DNA from: Podarcis liolepis | Lineage: Eukaryota | Direction: 5' to 3' (one strand) | DNA length: 64,000 bases | NCBI GenBank assembly: GCA_965112155.1 | Contig: OZ218099.1 | Shown here: piece after piece, positions 16,747-64,000 of the stretch | Layout of the letters: each line of letters begins with the position of its first letter | Numbering within the stretch: position 1 is the first letter of the stretch | Translations under genes and position numbers: made by a program | Notes under the pieces: generated by a model | Databases searched by the model: none | Seen by the model: the letters and a program-made list of their open reading frames with translations, nothing else | Told to the model about the DNA's origin: nothing

Positions 16747-17457
16747 TCTTATGGTTCTTTATCTTTAAAAAGGCATCTCTTCCAATAGAGGACTGTCCTC
16801 TGAAAAGTAGAACATGTGGCCACCCTATCAAGAAGTTATAGTCAGGTAGTCCTAGCTGGGGCCCTGTCCCCAAATCATCATCTTTTTATTGTCTCCAGAT
16901 GAGGCCTCAGGCACTGTTTTTGGTTCTGAAAGCCTCAGTTTCTTGCTTTCTGCAAACATAATTGTGTGGGGGAAAATACAAACAGTGCCGAATTCAAAAT
17001 TGTAGATGAGAAGTGTGATTAAATTGTGTATGTATGACTTGCCGGAAATGCACTAGAAGTAAACAGGTTGGACAAGGAATGCAAAAAATATCCCTGCCAT
17101 CCCCTGGAAGTATCACATACATTGCTTGGGTTCTGAGCCTTTTGCAAGTGTTCTTACTCCAAAAATGATAGAATGATAGAAGCATCTTTTTTTAAGAGTA
17201 ACATTTAGCAACTCCTGCATCTGAAAAGGGTATTTGGAGTTTATGTGGAGAGTCGAGTAAACTGTTCCACACAGCTCCATCCTGTATACCTTTCACTGCC
17301 TTGGGGCAAGCTGATTATATTAATGAGACTTCTGCACCTGCAAGTGATTTACTGGGTGTACGAAATGAAGACGCAGAAACTTCAGCCAAGTTATCCAGAT
17401 TTCTGTGTCAGTGGCCCTGGCGTAAACCCTAATGCCTTGATTTCTCTTCGTTTGCAG

Positions 17458-17864
17458 GAGCATTGCTGCTGGGGGGGATTCTCTACTCCTGGCAGTTCCC
17501 TCATTTCAATGCACTCAGCTGGGGGCTCCGCGAAGATTACTCCAGAGGTGGCTACTGCATGATGTCTGTCACCCACCCAGACATGTGCAGGCGGGTGGCT
17601 CTGCGTCATTGCCTCGCCTTAATTGGACTTTCATCACTGGCTCCCATCCTTGATGTCACCACGTGGACTTTCCCCATAATTTCTCTTCCCGTCAACCTGT
17701 ACATTTCCTACCTCGGCTTTCGTTTCTACAGAGACGCTGACCGTGGCAGCTCCCGGAAGTTGTTTTTCTGCAGCTTGTGGCACTTGCCAATGCTCCTCTT
17801 GCTCATGCTAACTTGCAAGAAATCTTGGTACAAAAAGGACAATGAAAAGGAATCCTTGAGTTGA
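17458..17864 (+). CDS. COX10: Protoheme IX farnesyltransferase, last coding exon (equivalent to human exon 7) with TGA stop
   Basis: tttctcttcgtttgcag acceptor ending at 17457. Translation (G)[40 protein letters not shown]...[25 protein letters not shown]...ESLS* contains the WQFPHF and [10 protein letters not shown]10 motifs and is in frame with the previous exon across an 11.8 kb intron. Confidence 0.97.
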
Positions 17865-18815: not shown

Positions 18816-19730
18816 TACCTGGCAGGATTTGTAGTCAAAGCCATGGGGTTAGAAGGGCCCAACAGTTTGGGTAGCTCCAGGAATGACTCCTAGAACAAAA
18901 ATCTGCCCATTGACTGGAAGTGTACAACTCAATTCTTGGTTTTCTGACAATCGGCCTGCTTGAAAGGAAACAAACTTATGCCCGGCAAATTTCCACCCCA
19001 TCAGACCTTTGACAACTTTCATGCCATCCTACTTTCATAGCAGCCTTTTTGCTAGTAGGTTATGATTGCCATCCTCCATCCAGGAAGGAGCTATTCGTTG
19101 TCTGAATTTCCGTTTCCTAGAAGTGCCTCCGACTCTTATTTCCTCCAACACATCATCAAGCAACCCTGATGGAAATGGAAATACAGAGCGGATGGAATCA
19201 GCTCAGTCTGGCCACGGAGAAAACATTTTGAACCAATCTGAAACAAGGAAATAACCTTCAGGGTGTAACTACTGTGGCTGAACAACCACAGAAACAGAAG
19301 CTTGTTCACTTTATATGCCAATCTTGTTTATGGCTTCAAGATGCTAGGTTAGTTGCGTATAGTTTATTGCATTCTTTTAACGCTAGCTTTTATATCATAG
19401 TTTTTCATGTTTCCACTACTTTCAAAAAGAATATTCAAAGCACAACGATCATCTTCCTTTCATCACATACACCCCACCAAATAATTTAAGTTCATTTGGA
19501 ATGTGAAGGTTTATTGGAATATATGTGAGATCAAGGTGCCTTTCTTGGAGATAGAGGGACCTAGCATAGAACAAGGACAAAACTGTTGTTATTTTACCTA
19601 CTTGCATTGTTGTCTAATTGCAGGGAATGGAGAGTTACCAGAAAACATTTGGGATGTCTGAATGAACAATTTGTAGGTGAGAATTGTAGGTGAGAACTGA
19701 GGGCATCATGGCAATTAATTCACAATGCTA
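18816..19730 (-). pseudogene. Endogenous bornavirus-like L polymerase fragment (EBLL), copy B, decayed
   Basis: About 80% nt identity to copy A over 18833-18995 (vs 20104-20262), plus shorter shared anchors upstream (tgagatcaaggt; ttccacta; AGG CTG CTA TGA AAG TAG vs AGG CTA GTA TTA TTG CAG). Translation keeps L-like blocks missing from copy A: GGVYVM ~ HGCYSL; VSVVVQPQ*L ~ VSSRVDIPHSL; DSIRSV...LEEI ~ DRLESV...LEEL; ends LPVNGQIFVLGV...PHGFDYK ~ QPVLVEVVYYVGV...PWSADLK. The upper boundary is uncertain. Confidence 0.62.
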
Positions 19731-20097
19731 CTCTGATCTATGTTTGCAAGAATGAGTTGAGGAGAACCTGCACAACCAATTTAACTGTCATATATACAGG
19801 TTGATCTACTTCCCCACAGATACATACACACACATCCCCAGAACACAATAGTACTATTAAAAGTACAATTCTGTATGTGTCTACTCAGAAGTAAGTCCTA
19901 CTGAGTTCAGAACTTCCACACAATTCAGACCACTGCTGAACAAGCTGTAGAAGAGGTCGTACAAAGACAACAACTAATTTATTTGGCACGATTTCATGAA
20001 TCCAGACCAAGCTCCCACTTAAATCAGTGGCATGACTTGTCTATTTGCAATGCTTTCAATGGGACCAAAGTAGGCTGGATCTAAACTATTGTGTCCA

Positions 20098-21330
20098 GAA
20101 GGCAGTCAAATCCATGGGGTAAGGGCTCAAAGGTTTTGGGTAGGCCTAGGAGTGACTCCTAGCGCAAAATCTGGCCATTCACTGGAAGCATACAGCTCAC
20201 CTCTTGTTTTTCTGACAACCAGCCTTCTTGAAAGGAAATAACTTCTGCCGGACTAATTCCCATTCTGCCAGTGTTAGATTCTGCTATAAATTCATAAGGA
20301 ACAAGTTCTGGCTTCCAACTGCAATAATACTAGCCTAACTTACTGGATTATTTTAAGAATTGCTGAAATAATGTATGTGACATACTCTCGACAATCTAAA
20401 ATACTAAAGAAATACATGCTAATGCTGCGATCCTATGCTTACTTGCTGAGATTAATCTCTCAGTAGGGCTTGCTTCTAAGTAGCAGGGGTTTCCAATGAA
20501 GAACAAATGAATAACCGAAACACGGGTCCTCTCAAATACAACTAATTTCATTGTTCCAATATGGAGTTGTCTTGCTTCCACTATCAGTTTTGCTAATAAA
20601 GCTTTCCTTGGCCTGGTTGTCTTTATGCGCAGAGATTCCCATGAGATCAAGGTTGTGGGCAGGCAGGGGAAGCATAGGAAATACCACGCCCGATCAAAAC
20701 ATCATGTTATCCATTTTGAAACTGCAACAGATTTCTTCCTTTCTCTGTTTTAAAGTGTAGCCAGTGGTTGTGTGTGACTTTGTGCAACCACACCTTCAAT
20801 CCAGAGTGGTTTCTTTCTGAATTTGAAAAGAGCTGTAGGATAATGGGCAATTGTGTCCATGACCCTTTTTCTTTCCCAGTAAACCATTAGAGATTGCCAC
20901 CTGGCCAGTTTTTTTCTGCCACCTGATTGCTTTTCTAATACTGAATCGATGACAGTCAATGGACAGCTTCTAAATGTGCATATATTTATATTAATGAAAT
21001 ACCATAATGCACCAGTGGCTATTATTTTGTTTTCCTCAGGGGTAGGGGAAGACTCCTGATCACAGAAGTGAGAAAATGGGAAATTATTGATCTGATCTAC
21101 CATTGCTTGAGGGCCTGTGGCCATTAATATTCCCAGAAACCAGCTTTTGATACTCAAAGGTGGGAACTCATGTAATCATGTGTTACCTGGCTCTCCCATG
21201 TTTTTCATCTTTTTAAATGATTCTAAACAAGGAGATGGAAGAGGTGGAGGTAGAATAAGCACACACCTTGCCCTAGTAACTCCCAAAAGTCCAACATCTC
21301 AGTCACCTGAGCATCATATCCCATTGTAAC
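20098..21330 (-). pseudogene. Endogenous bornavirus-like L polymerase fragment (EBLL), copy A, decayed (stops, frameshifts, internal deletions)
   Basis: One minus frame (containing ORFs 20750..21157 and 20396..20650) has only 5 stops in ~335 codons. Colinear matches to recalled BoDV-1 L: EFPPLSIKSWFLGILM (21169-21122) ~ EFDPCVSAGYCLGILI; ALWYFI (21010-20993) ~ SLWRFL; LMVYWERKRVMD ~ LMKVFQDSALLMD; KKSVAVSK ~ SKYHAVSE; PTTLI ~ PTQFV; IHLFFIGNPCYLE (20512-20474) ~ IILVLGGDPAYYE; after a frameshift AILKIIQ*VRLVLL (from 20363) ~ PIYRSLQSFRLALM; YEFIAE ~ YSFVMD; PVNGQI.ALGV ~ PVLVEVVYYVGV. Boundaries approximate. Confidence 0.72.
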
Positions 21331-22339
21331 AAATGTCCAGAACAGCAGCTGTGATAGCCTGTTGCAGCGAAAACAACTGTGGTTTGTGGCAGGCTAACGA
21401 CTTAATTGATTATGGCACAAGCATTGTGTGTACCACAATATACACCTCTGTGAATCTGATTGCTATGAACTCGGCCTCACAATTCATTTGAAGGGCATAT
21501 GCAGTGGACAAGCCAGTTGCTCAAGACATCTCTCGGAGGTGGATTTAGGGCAGCATGACCAGTTCCCCCACATAGGGCACTGATACCAAGGCAATGCCTT
21601 CCTGCCTACTTCCCAAAGCCTAGAAAGCACTCAGTTCGGGTTGGAGACGTAACGGTTCTGGCAGGGTCCTAGAGTCTCCTTCCTTCTCGAAGCCTAGTTA
21701 GCACTTGCCCTGCTTTGAGAGGGGTGAAGAAGGGCTCTAGGACCACGCTAGAGCCCTCATGCCTCCTTCCCATAGCCCAGTGCCTTGTTTACTCGGCTTT
21801 GGGGAAGCAGTGTGAAGGCTGGGAGGAGGCGTCAAATTTGGGTCTCACTTGGGGCACCATATTACCATTTCTCTTGCCTGTTTTCTTTTGAAGAAAGAAG
21901 ACATTCCTCGTTGTTTTGTTTTGTTTTTTGAAGGAAGGTCAAGATGTGGACACTGCAAGAATGACTTAACACTTTGCTGGGGCGGTTCCACCGGGTTTGG
22001 TTTTCATTTATTTGAAAGGCTGCATGTTTTCAACAGAACAAGGCATCAAGACGGATGTGAGGCAATCATCCTTCCAAATGTTCCCAACTAGAAGACGGGA
22101 TTGTACTGGAAGCAAGGGAAATGGTTACAAGAGGACATCAAACATTAAGTTATCTGGATTTATTTAAGTTAACTTGGGAGCAGCGGGGTATTATGTCTTA
22201 CAGTGGAAAATAATAAAATGAAACTCAACAAAGAAAAGCATTAAGCATGACACATTGGAAAGAAATGGCAAATGTATAATTACCAAACTGGGGAGACGAT
22301 TGTCTGGGCTCCAGCATTACCGAGAAGGAATAAGAAGGA

Positions 22340-37949: not shown

Positions 37950-39250
<1,301 letters not shown>

Positions 39251-42200
39251 GACGGCAACCCGTCCACGTGTCTCCATCGACCCAAAGTGGGAGATTTCCC
39301 TCTGCCCCACTCCTAGGGAGAATGCGACTCGCTGAACTCTCTAGCAGTTTACTGGTTACTTCACCCCCCAAAACACACAGGGCTTTTACTGGGTGTTGAT
39401 GGGAGTTGAGCGGGTAAGGTAAGAGAGAGACCCGGGCCGAATCGTCCTGCTTTTCCATTGCACCAACAGTTACGCGCGGTGAAAGCCACCTCTAAAGCTC
39501 TTAGGAGTTTGAATAGCCTTGACTCCCAAGTAACGGGTTTAGATGCGACTTGTTCGAGGGTTCTCCCTTCTCCCCGCTTTCCCTTCGGGGAAAGAGGGAT
39601 GCGTTTAAAATGTGCCCAGGACTGTGGATGTGGATGCAAGCGGGAAATAACTGGCGTGGGTCAAGGTGGGAAGTAAGCAAGGGAGGCCACTGGCCCTCGC
39701 GGCCGAGCCGCCTTTAGAGCCTGTAAGTGGGCCTGCCCACACGCCGCCTCGAGGGTCCTCTCCAAGCCGTGTTGTTTCGAGGCTCCGGTGGCCTCTCCAA
39801 GGTCTCCCCGCGTGGCCTCCAGTGTATCAGGCATCAAGTATCCGTGACCCTCATGATGGACGGGGTGAGACTCGGCTGCCCTGCAGTTATTGTTCCCAGG
39901 AGCCCCGGCGTGGATTAATTCCGCTAGGCGTTTGTATTGGGGGCTGTTTGTGTGCGCGCGTATTGGGAGGGTGGGAGCCGAGTGCCAGGAAGGGAAACTT
40001 CCCCCCGCTTCCAAATCGGTTTCAAGCGCCGTAGCCGAACTCGCTCTAGATCCACCCCACTCCCTCTCTCTCTAAAAAGCCCGCAGCCCCATTCAGACGG
40101 CAGTGAGGTCCGTGTGTATCTGAGCAGCGCGCCGGCGAGCGAGTTTGAAGGCAGCGCAAGGAGGCGCCGGCCGTGCGCGGAGAGGTAGTGAGCTCTGTTG
40201 GGCGAAAGGGAGCACTGCAGCTCCTGCTCCGCCAGCCCGCTCGGGATTCTTCTTATTTTGACACGGGAACCCGGCGATCTGCTGTGCCGACTGAATCTCG
40301 GCAAACGCTAATGAAAGTTAACCTTCCATAACTTTCCTGGACCTGCTTTGTGGAGCAAACGCGCCTCCATGGGGTACTTTTTAAGGATCCTGGGATTTAA
40401 AACGACAAATAGATCTGGAATGGTTGTGGAGTCCTTTGGGCAGTTTCACGCGTCCTCTGGGGGGTGCGAGGATGGTTTTAAGGCCTCGTAGTAGCGGTCA
40501 TACCCACCCGATCCTGCCGAGTTTAAGTTCTGCAGGACTGGGAGAAAGAGTTGCCCTTCCCAGTCTAGACAGCGGCGGCTCCACTCCGTCTCCTGCGCGC
40601 CTTCTTCCTTGTCATTTTCAACAGCAGCTTCTCGCGCGCTTCACATTTCTCGGTCCTTGGCCGATGGACTTTTCTCTTTGAAATGACGCTTTAGAGAGGA
40701 AAAAAGGGGGAAAGTTCTAAACAAAAATGTCCTATTGAGGGCATGCAGGAAAAATAATCCAGAGTTCAAAATGAGAGCAGAGAGTGGAACGAAAGATCTT
40801 AGGCAACGGATTTTCTTAAGATCAGCCTGTGTGGTTTGACTTGCGATCTTGATCTCTCCGTTCTCTTACTAAAGGGGAGAATTTTATTTGCGGGGGGGGG
40901 GGCAGAAATCCTCCGCTACCTTATGGGGGAAAGTGCTGTAGACACCAGTTATCAAGCCAGCGCCAGGTGGTTCTCTCCTCTCCTTCAGATGAATGGGAGA
41001 GCGGGAGATGGCGCGATTAAAAACACCACCACCCTGCAGTTTTTAAAGGGATCTGTCCGCTGACCTTCTGCACTTCATGGGGACTGACTGCAGACCTGCG
41101 AAGAGAAGCCTCTGAAGCCTCTGTAATGGGATGCGGTCGTCGTCTGTGCAACATGTGTCAGGGCATGGAAATGAATCCTTGTACAGTCGAGGTGTCCATT
41201 GATTTATAGGGTGGTGATAACTTGGAGGGAGAGCCTTGTCTGTTATAAATAAAAATGGTTTTGATTTTACATTCCAAGCCCTGCACTCAGTCAAGTGACT
41301 TCCACTTCCATTCCCCCCCCCCCAAAAAAAATCCCAGCTTGCAGAACTTTGAGTGAATCTGTGCAGGGAGATGGAAAAATTACAAATAAAAATTCCAAAC
41401 CTGTGCTATGCTAAGCACATGGCCGAGTTTCTGTTTGTGGTTGTTGTTTTTTTTTTTTAGACCATTCTATTTTAAATAGGACACAATTTAAAACATCTCA
41501 CAGGGAAGAAGGGCTTGATTAAGGAAGAGCCAGAACAGTGGCAACAATTTAACGTGTACCAATCAATAGATGCAGTTGTTGCTTTCAGTAAAGGAAATTT
41601 GAGATGTATTTGTTTTTAAAGTAAAATGGAAAGACACAATGTAAACGTATTTGGAGACGCCAAGCTTTTTCGCTCATTTAGGGTCACACGAATGCTTCTT
41701 GGAGGAATTGTGGGCCAAGTGAGCAAGAGTGTGAAAGCAAAGCAAGGGCTTCCTGCCTTCTGCTCTGGCAGGAGGATCAAGTCGCTTGTTTGGTGGGCAG
41801 GCTGTGCTTGTCCCCGTCTTCCCGGCTCCTTCCTCCCCGGCTCTCCTTTGTCACTCCCACAGCCCAGCGCCACAGCCTTTGATTAGGGAGGCTAGTGCTA
41901 ATTTTGTTAGCCGAGGCTGTGAAGAGCCGGATCTCTGTTATCCAGGGCGAGGGCCTTCAAGGTTTTCTAAAAGATCCTCCCCAAACTACTGCTTGTAGCT
42001 AATGAGCAGAGCTGTCAGGAAGACGAAAACCATTAAGTGTTGCTAAAGGCCAAACTAAGGGGGAATTTTCAACTAGCTTAGAAGTTGCGGGTTGGGTGGA
42101 TGGAATGGGAGCCTGCATTTAAAACTCAACTCTACCTAAGTGGTTTAACTCTTTTTTTGGCGGAAACTTAATCACTGGAAAGCCACATGCTTAAAGGGGT

Positions 42201-53624: not shown

Positions 53625-54918
53625 ATTTCAACTGACAGGGGCAGGGAACTCTTTGTGTTCTTCCATGGTTGCTCAGGACTGTTTCCTGTATTCCCTGGGT
53701 TTGCAGCAGGGTGTAGCCAATGTCAAGCCCTCCAGCTGTTGTGGACTACAACTTCCACCCTTCCTCTGTGTGCTGTGCTGTGGTTGGGGATGATGGGAAT
53801 TGTAGTCCAAACATATGGAACACACTGTGTTGGCTACTCCTGGTTTGTAGGTGAGGTGCAGACCTTTCCATTGATGCTTTTTGTAGCTGCATGATTTTTG
53901 ACTATTTGTATTGTGGTTGTTTGCTGGCTTTGTAAATTTCAAGGAATTTGGAAACTGCTTGTTCATATGGTTTATGCCAAGAGTTGGGAACCTGTGGCCA
54001 TCCAGAGAACGAATGCTGTCTGCAGTGAACATGACAAGCGGCTGGGGATTATGAGGATTATTGTCCAACAACATCTGGCCACAGTTCTCCATCCTTTCCT
54101 CAAGCAGTCTTGCATCTTCTCCAGCTTTTTTACCAAGGCTATCAAAGAAGGGTTGTATTTTTATTTTTTGGATGGGGGAATATATGGAATATTCCCTTAG
54201 TGCTGTTCCTTCCTTCAGCAAATCTCTTTCCCCCAAACCGTGGAGCACACTATATGATTGGGAAGGAGACACAAACATCTCTCATCCACCTTTTCCTCTG
54301 GAAAAATGAAAACAGTGAGGGCTAAATGAAAATGCCAGCTTGTCTAATGCCAAGCCATTAGCCACTGGATTCAGGATACAAAGAGTATTTGTGTGTACTG
54401 GCACATCCCAAGTGTTGAAGGCCATTCCTTGTTTAGAGTCTGTTGGCACACACTTAAGAGTACCTCGGGATGCTTCCACATAGCCTTCTCTCCCTCTCCC
54501 CTCTGCATATAAAGAGAGCCCATCCTGCACCATCAACCTGTGAATCTAGCTATTGGCACCATTCACTTAACTGGTTTATTCCAGAGAATCCCAATGATGT
54601 TCCTGTCTCAAACTGTTGCACTCACACTTTCCCAACATGTCACTCCATTAAAAAAAATAAAAAGTGTCAGGTTCAGATTGCTTTTGGAGTTTCTTGCACG
54701 ATTGTAATGCTATTTCCTTACTTGGTTTGAAGGTGTGGCTTGCAATGTACTTGGCGATGGGGCTGTTGTGTAGCCTTTCTTCCTCTCGCCATTACCTGCT
54801 TGCTGCTCCATCATGTGGCCTCTTCAGAACCATTGCCCTGCTGTAGCATCTGGACTGTATCTGAAAGTGAGTTTAAAGGGGGAAAGGATCTGAAATGACC
54901 ACGGGTACTCTTATGGGA

Positions 54919-62223: not shown

Positions 62224-64000
62224 TAAAGTGTATGGGTTTTGTACAGTCCACATGCCCTCTTCCTGCTTAGTGGCTAAACTTTATATGGCCTTTTGAAATC
62301 TCTAGAAGACACATCTTCTCTTCAAGGGCAGGAGAAATATCTTTTTCCCCAGGTCTGAATCTTCTGCACTTCTCAATCGAACGCCTGTTAAATCTGTTCT
62401 TGTAGGAGAGCTAAATCCATAACCGGAGCGATTAAACCAATTTGGCTACATGGAAACAGGGTCTAATTAATCACGCTGTCCAAACTCCTCTTGCTTTATG
62501 GAGCCGCTTCTTATTTTACATTCCTTTCTTGCCACTTGAAAAGCTTCTATGTTAGTCTTAACTTCTTTGAAGCAGATCTTATTGAATTTAAATGTATTCA
62601 CTCAACCATGATTGCTGCCGAAAAGCCCTTGTCTGTGCTGGCAGTCCATGTAGGAGGAATAGTGTTTGGTCTCCTCCTCCTTTCCTACCTCTTTCTCCCC
62701 CCTGCCCGCTCCCCCCCCCAACATGCAGCAGGCAGGGTGAGGAGTTGAAAGATTACTCCCTGGCCTGGATAGGTGGGCAACCATAGGTGGGTGAACAAGC
62801 ATGGGGGGATATCGCAATGCAGCGAGAAGCTCTTGCCTACACAGATAAGTGAGCATTATTCCAAGGAGTCCTGCAGATCCAAAGCATCAAATGTTGGATC
62901 CAAAATGTGCGAGTGCGGTATAGGCTACCAAAATATGTAGAAGTGATTCCTCCTCCTTTTCTTTTTTAATGACTTGTGGCTTGCTTCCTTAGCAGCCTGT
63001 AAAAAAGCTGCTGATGCCTGGTTATTTTGTGGGGGGTTCTGAGCTCTTGAACCAAGAGAGAGAGAGAAGCTTATGAATAATGCAACTTCAGTGAGCAAAG
63101 GGATTAATGAAAGCACAACCCATTTGGTCCGATGGAGGCAGAGTCCTCATTGGGTGCCTCTGCCAACTGAAAACATTAAAGAGGCCACTGAAAAGTCCTG
63201 TAAACTATGCGTATAATTATTGGTGCCTCGTCTTGTGGACTTTGCGCAAGAAAATGGAGCAAGCAAGGAATGGTGGTTGAGATGCGCTTGCATTTCTCTC
63301 CTAGAGCACAGGCCTGGTTGTGTCGTGCAGATGGAAACATACGTCCTGGATGTTGGTGGAATAGCGATTGTAGTCGCAGGACTAAGTAAGTAATGAAGAA
63401 AAGGGTGGTGGGAATTAGCACATTGAAAAGCGCCTCTTGTGTGGAAAGCCCTTGACCACTTTTTTTTTAATCTCTCCCTCCCCCACCCCCGAAATTGGCT
63501 GCGTCTGTTTTGAGTCATTTCATTTCCAAGAAACCTTTCTCCTCCTCCTCCTTCCCTTAACATGACCTGCAAAAAGCCCATGCAGGAAATGGCTGCAGAT
63601 TACTCGACTACCCCTCTGGCCAAGCCATGTGAAATGAATGCCTGATAATGATGAGAGAGTGTCTAAAGGAACGGCTCCGTAAACAGCAGTGAGCTTTTAA
63701 TCTAACCACTATCCAGTCATCTGCACTTATTTTCCGCTCCTTCCCACCACCTCCTTTTCCTAGCAGGCATAAAACCTTGTAGCCATTAAAGGGGTGCTGA
63801 GGGGATCCTTCAGACAATGGAAGGGGCGCCGAGTGGGACAAAAGGAATTCAGATGCGCTCTTGTCTCTTGGGCAAGTGAGAAGCAAGGGGAGTTCTTGTA
63901 AACGGCAGCGGAGCTGGTGTGTCTTGAATGATGCTGACAATTAGGAGTGTCCTGCTGGTTTTTCTGAAACAAACAAATACAAATACCCTATATAAAGAGT

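Follow-up and report, generated by a model that had tools for sequence, protein, structure and literature searches.

Endogenous bornavirus-like elements (EBLs) bear the hallmarks of viral mRNA copied by LINE-1, namely poly(A) and target-site duplications (PMC10288550). Those derived from L (EBLLs), such as eEBLL-1 of bats, are described as parts of L in the germline that are present as a single copy, found in related species and probably derived from mRNA (PMC4865735, PMC11089739). In squamates, the N-derived elements (EBLNs) of chameleon and lancehead, given as 65% identical in nucleotide sequence to living viruses, indicate that orthobornavirus-like viruses did enter squamate germlines (PMC8321990), and culterviruses of reptiles have also been described (PMC13293379). 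Catalogued EBLs were found by tBLASTn (bioRxiv 2020.12.02.408005), and those of reptiles are few, with 27 given in Table 3 of PMC11089739.

Here, we analysed a 64,000-nucleotide stretch of lizard DNA (hereafter, the window), in which a preliminary description had proposed an old C-terminal L fragment of a divergent bornavirus. We read the locus as a 5'-truncated, interrupted and neutral EBLL-type fossil of a divergent bornavirus-like virus; this is not proven, and we give it a probability of about 0.55. The original proposal thus survives, mostly on evidence that its author did not have. If homology to L holds, the locus works like an EBLL, since it would likewise be a single-copy, germline part of L shared by related species and probably derived from mRNA. 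It differs from described EBLLs in that it lacks the RdRp and capping domains, is interrupted and has no intact ORF, and it is undetectable by the tBLASTn searches with which the catalogued EBLs were found. Unlike the squamate EBLNs, it is not matched by N; profiles of bornavirus N, P, M, G and X were not significant, and these genes were rejected as the source.

If this reading is true, the locus is an L-derived bornavirus fossil in a lizard, a report of which we did not find, and it originates in the part of L that is least conserved, out of tBLASTn's reach. Bornavirus fossils in vertebrate genomes would then be more numerous and more divergent than the catalogues show, and a minimum age could be set for the infection of lizards by bornavirus-like viruses. 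If it is not true, the locus shows clearly how short motifs can mislead when they are colinear. In the literature covered, no lizard EBLL was found at this place, and the searchable supplements of PMC11521997 and PMC11089739 list, under the terms used, no bornavirus locus from a lacertid; the locus table of the 100-My survey, which lies outside that literature, may list it.

Genomic Setting and Expression of the Locus

The locus lies on a 129-Mb contig and adjoins a host exon, indicating host integration. At least half of its sequence words were present in 16 sequencing runs with 5 organism labels, so that it is common to several related organisms, and both read depth and genome searches indicated a single copy. 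The candidate element lies approximately 1.5–3.5 kb beyond the last exon of a UbiA-family gene (Table 1). We take this gene to be COX10, as in the preliminary description, which the UbiA domain fits. Farther along the window, positions 38000–40000 form a CpG island (GC 0.72), where a sulfotransferase-domain exon occupies 38400–39146 on the plus strand; from synteny it is presumably HS3ST3B1.

Table 1. Coordinates of the features in and around the locus (positions in the window; L residues in the numbering of Borna disease virus 1 L).
Feature	Position	Strand	Remarks
UbiA-family neighbour gene, last coding exon	17433–17861	+	UbiA domain, E 1.8e-9 (Pfam); transcribed to ~18100
Second copy of the 163-nt segment	18833–18995	same orientation	79% identical
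Stretch of 26 codons similar to the main frame's end	19187–19261	-	12 identities
A-rich tract (28/50 A), richest in 21400–18600	19363–19412	-	candidate decayed poly(A)
Possible C-terminal-domain block, L 1632–1644	19628–19666	-	on the expected diagonal; not significant
L-like 1571–1608	19750–19853	-	GMC block, frameshift, ungapped block; C1579, C1586 matched
Very high-copy repeat fragment breaking the L-like continuation	19858–19911		depth in the thousands, with loose ends at 19878 and at 19910
L-like continuation, L ~1522–1559	19913–20057	-	S1523, C1557 matched; 2 stops over 20099–19913
Segment without L similarity, duplicated 1.27 kb away	20104–20262		copy at 18995–18833
Truncated old dispersed repeat, SINE-like	20323–20413	+ (inferred from A-rich tail)	contains the AILKIIQ block
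Main stop-poor frame, 295 codons, 3 stops	20414–21298	-	aligned part 21169–20426, L ~1253–1519
End of another dispersed repeat, bounding the element on the 5' side	21328–21391

In one RNA run (approximately 12% of its reads), depth was zero over 20084–21475 and 12–25 on the COX10 exon. Among the substitutions listed, 8 of 10 were non-synonymous, and one organism had a 1-nt insertion. Because of these three observations, the locus appears to be drifting neutrally at present, with no product. They also argue against a functional host element, such as an exon or an RNA gene on the strand opposite COX10, which would explain why the frame is more open than its apparent age predicts. Rfam gave three weak matches, all far below the gathering score, and we consider such an element very improbable.

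Openness of the Main Frame

The wider minus-strand frame contains 5 stops in 337 codons, in agreement with the preliminary count over about 335 codons. On the other hand, the approximately 20 stops said to be expected were an overestimate, as the window rate of 0.047 per codon gives about 16. An equally open frame arose in 17 of 60 Markov-simulated 64-kb windows, and 2 frames this open at a GC content of 0.44 or less were found in 400 kb of real DNA from the same genome; frame openness by itself is weak evidence. The codon periodicity of the main frame was equalled by 3 of 72 window segments and 11 of 80 stop-poor frames, and its codon usage was not virus-like (-11.7 vs. +8 to +44, with 16 of 80 nulls as high). 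The simulated windows, together with periodicity and codon scores that are unremarkable among stop-poor frames, favour a chance origin, in which old intergenic DNA and repeat debris left one frame open and L-like motifs were picked out of it afterwards. We regard chance as the less likely explanation, and the evidence that speaks against it lies downstream of the main frame, as described below.

The 885-nt main frame carries no frameshift at all, although the SINE nested in the locus is 10–16% diverged per lineage. Divergence of that size predicts several frameshifts in 885 nt, in tension with the unbroken frame, so that the copy may be of lesser age than it appears, or part of the frame may owe its openness to chance, or selection may once have acted on it. 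Note that two random stretches of the genome contain 295-codon frames (from ~1760 and from ~1030, both on the plus strand) with 0 and 1 stops at 43–44% GC, which are probably exons or transposon ORFs. Two other stop-poor frames occur in the window, at 53676–54545 (342 codons) and 63150–63599 (304 codons), both on the minus strand with 3 stops each, and Pfam gave no match in those of their stop-free parts that were searched.

Comparison of the Main Frame with Bornavirus L

The references were 24 bornavirid and 39 other L proteins obtained by protein search, together with 10 viral contigs fetched via a published primer (PMC5834213). The L blocks that had been quoted for BoDV-1 (Borna disease virus 1) were accurate, as all 7 checked were letter-exact and in order in an 8910-nt bornavirus record, and the peptide blocks on the window side were found where they had been placed. 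Standard searches, from which a significant colinear match should have been obtained according to the preliminary description, all came out empty, in favour of chance. Specifically, there was no match of the frame in the PDB (phmmer), which includes BoDV-1 L, in Pfam, among 1.84 billion protein representatives (0 at E ≤ 1e-3) or, for longer lengths, in a 5.8-billion protein set; when the 24 bornavirid L proteins were run against the 64-kb window (tblastn and hmmsearch --max), the best E of the locus was 1.3. With hhalign, the frame reached no better than E 0.2 and 0.057, and the pairwise score of BoDV-1 L was lower than the mean of the shuffles, 166 of 200 of which scored as high. The RdRp and capping domains were absent from the window by tblastn and HMMER, as is expected for a 5'-truncated copy. 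Searches of the lizard's own genome with PF00946, a snake bornavirus L and its tail were empty, and their positive controls were silent too. Seven further partial L proteins added nothing, a second scan of viral contigs yielded no new bornavirid lineage, and a single-sequence AlphaFold model (pLDDT 35.7), for which a viral fold search returned 0 at E ≤ 0.001, was uninformative. Nyamivirus-like and rhabdovirus L were rejected as the source (16–34 of 1500 shuffles in pairwise comparison, without convincing motifs).

We then used an orthobornavirus L-tail profile in a frameshift-aware alignment with cheap gaps, which aligned the main frame over the part given in Table 1 at 33.3 bits; 2 of 480 real-DNA nulls and 10 of 300 shuffles scored as high. 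The profile chose three of the registers that had been proposed, namely EFPP at L 1253, ALW at 1313 and GNPCYLE at 1497. However, natural tails from other genera reached 65–140 bits on this profile, vs. 33.9 for the main frame, only 4 of 20 near-invariant L columns were matched (12 of 100 shuffles reached as many), and a decoy slice of L scored as well on the main frame (2 of 160) because open frames are favoured.

Among 65 mononegavirus L proteins, the best single pairwise match was a cultervirus, the finepatterned puffer bornavirus, whose L 1239–1521 aligned with query residues 35–290 in the same register. The identity was 59/240, and the score was equalled by 2 of 2000 shuffles, 6 of 300 family-wise and 7 of 202 stop-poor frames. 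An ungapped block of 59 residues, chosen post hoc, ranked first among 127,642 positions on the cultervirus profile, and second once the puffer virus was left out of that profile. Reciprocally, a bornavirid topped the 65 L proteins, and wider databases gave no match at all.

The evidence in the preliminary description had been about ten colinear blocks, each weak alone. Such colinearity alone is no proof, since bornavirus P, an unrelated protein, was in pairwise comparison equally colinear in the same frame (z 4.2, 0 of 100 shuffles). The match, at 21124–20903 on the minus strand, starts at a Met and involves the first 70 residues of orthobornavirus P; the P profile gave no support (6–10 of 160), and we took it as a false positive. 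That P matches as well as L in pairwise comparison counts in favour of chance. The main frame reads best, if weakly, as the L connector and the first part of the methyltransferase-like domain, and alone it is insufficient for accepting the L claim.

A Colinear L-Like Continuation Downstream of the Main Frame

L-like sequence resumes downstream in two parts, outside the interval first described (Table 1). This continuation first came to light when 7 profiles were scanned at 2 gap settings, after an earlier test of the 3' side had failed; among the 14 combinations, the orthobornavirus tail profile chose the block ending at 19750 (4 and 13 of 160 nulls). When 20322–19700 was aligned with L from 1520 onward, masking of the repeat gave a score of 32.0 bits (1 of 640 nulls; 6 of 640 with strict gaps), and the unmasked sequence scored 29.3 bits (5 of 880 nulls), whereas the opposite strand and a reversed profile reached 17.3 and 17.8 bits in the downstream region. 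Of 15 profile slices tried downstream, the predicted one was equalled by 0 of 320 nulls, and the best of the 14 decoys by 17 of 320. In this frameshift-aware alignment, a kind of search that had been suggested for the locus, decoys were silent downstream only, and several settings were tried.

The continuation is in order and adjoining, as the main frame ends at L 1519 and the continuation starts at L 1522, and its length fits once the high-copy repeat at 19911–19858 is allowed for. All 4 invariant residues of L 1520–1600 (S1523, C1557, C1579 and C1586) are matched. After a frameshift near 19830 in a TG-rich run, an ungapped 23-codon block, C-x5-PVY..LLNSF, contributes 19 bits, and the best counterpart of the block PIYRSLQSFRLALM of the preliminary description is found here, at 19818–19750. 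Note that 2–3 of the continuation's cysteines lie in or beside the TG-rich run, and that cultervirus, carbovirus and all-24 profiles were not significant downstream (42–232 of 640). A continuation in order, of the right length and with silent decoys argues against chance, as does the summed score of main frame and continuation, for which 7 of 179,200 null pairs, not independent of one another, did as well. In favour of chance, many profile and gap settings were tried; allowing for these, we judge, without a computed value, that the later tests together amount to p ~0.01.

The gap between L-like 1519 (at 20426) and 1522 (at 20057) is filled by a SINE-like repeat and a duplicated segment. The former, 20413–20323, matched the profile of 15 other repeat copies (E 7e-14) and was 67–80% identical to 12 copies; by description only, it resembles the MIR-derived Squam3A (PMC7983390). 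The statement that the frame resembles no SINE was therefore incorrect. Furthermore, the AILKIIQ block, which had been aligned with L by reading its TAA stop as a decayed codon, lies with that stop inside the repeat, a point in favour of chance. The YEFIAE and PV..LGV blocks lie in 20322–20098, mostly made up of the duplicated segment, which is at background against every L-tail profile (151–320 of 320 nulls as high), and they likewise have to be dropped.

Over the whole colinear profile match, L ~1253–1608, the locus agrees with orthobornavirus L at W1313, S1523, C1557, C1579 and C1586, and its GMC block resembles that of snake orthobornaviruses; a snake-only L profile brought no overall improvement (8 of 560 and 47 of 320). 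In contrast, its score is about one third of that of any natural cross-genus relative, and the LERFS motif, D1509 and C1511 are missing. In BoDV-1, the methyltransferase spans 1421–1590 and a zinc site is formed by H1485, D1509, C1511 and C1586 (PMC12350838). This site (zinc site 2) was invariant in 24/24 natural bornavirid L proteins, whereas in the locus C1586 is matched and H1485 falls only within a 2-residue block. Given the lack of a significant translated match and the incomplete zinc site, we did not file the locus in any bornavirid genus. A more specific version, in which a reptile virus outside the sampled genera had a methyltransferase-like domain without part of the zinc site, and the 295-codon frame was selected in the host after the SINE had cut it, seems improbable to us.

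The 3' End and a Possible Origin

Downstream of the continuation, the C-terminal domain of L was not significant, with 507–567 of 1120 nulls as high. The A-rich 50-mer starts at 19412, approximately 30 nt beyond the L stop predicted near 19440, a position equalled in 165 of 4640 null intervals. In 6 natural records, the gene-end A run lies +1 to +94 after the stop, and the tract is within that range; its closeness to the predicted L end argues against chance. There was neither a clean A run nor a gene-end signal at the tract, and no target-site duplication of at least 8 nt was found around the whole element, although such a duplication may have decayed.

Homology to L being weakly supported by these comparisons, the following course of events may be suggested. 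The locus, at ~21300–19360 on the minus strand, would be a dead retrocopy, truncated on its 5' side, of the 3' end of an L mRNA, and the virus that supplied it would be bornavirus-like but distant from every sampled genus. The reverse transcriptase of a host LINE may have been primed on the poly(A) tail and have stopped after ~1.4 kb, leaving out the RdRp and copying the connector, methyltransferase-like and C-terminal domains alone. An L fragment anchored at the 3' end and truncated at the 5' end would fit the LINE-1 mRNA route. Later, the retrocopy would have been broken up by two repeats of the host and by a segment duplicated locally, and it would now drift neutrally and make no product. 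In this account, the LINE mechanism, the poly(A) and the order of events are inferred only.

The Duplicated Segment and Neighbouring Repeats

The two copies of the 163-nt segment are open in the same orientation, and 7 of 12 core differences are at third positions. In addition, 19187–19261 is a protein-level echo of 20521–20444, nearly on the diagonal of the duplicate, with a nucleotide identity of only 44–52%; at 6 of the 12 residues that are identical, the codons differ. Its p is ~0.001–0.04 depending on the search space (1 of 1920 nulls anchored, 2–10 of 240 banded). These features, and a direct repeat of 9 nt with copies at 21342 and 20100 (equalled by 12 of 2370 nulls), would suit a decayed coding sequence of other origin, such as an extinct transposon ORF, a lineage-specific host gene or a gene of an unsampled virus, in two diverged tandem copies ~1.27 kb apart. 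However, the first 240 codons show no homology between the copies (58–196 of 240 nulls), the second block was not significant unanchored (46 of 560), no family was found in genome and protein databases, and the L-like continuation would be left unexplained. Paralogue searches of the genome returned the locus itself, the local duplicate, one match at E 0.8 and nothing more. We accordingly hold a coding origin of this kind to be doubtful, and retain the L-derived fossil as the preferred reading.

The similarity of the 163-nt duplicate stops 4 nt before the 9-nt sequence that is repeated at 21342–21334. As a target-site duplication, this 9-nt repeat seems doubtful, since a dispersed repeat begins with its upstream copy, and no continuity is seen in the related copies. 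The dispersed repeat that ends at 21328 is presumably Penelope-like. Beyond it, imperfect inverted and direct repeats at 21574–21780 form a hairpin; this element is multi-copy, some stranded RNA reads fall on it in one run, and its weak matches to miRNA models are far below the gathering score. In two other stretches of the genome (1500–1700 in each), short dispersed repeats carry CTGANGA...GAAA motifs, which may be like the hammerhead ribozymes of Penelope-like elements.
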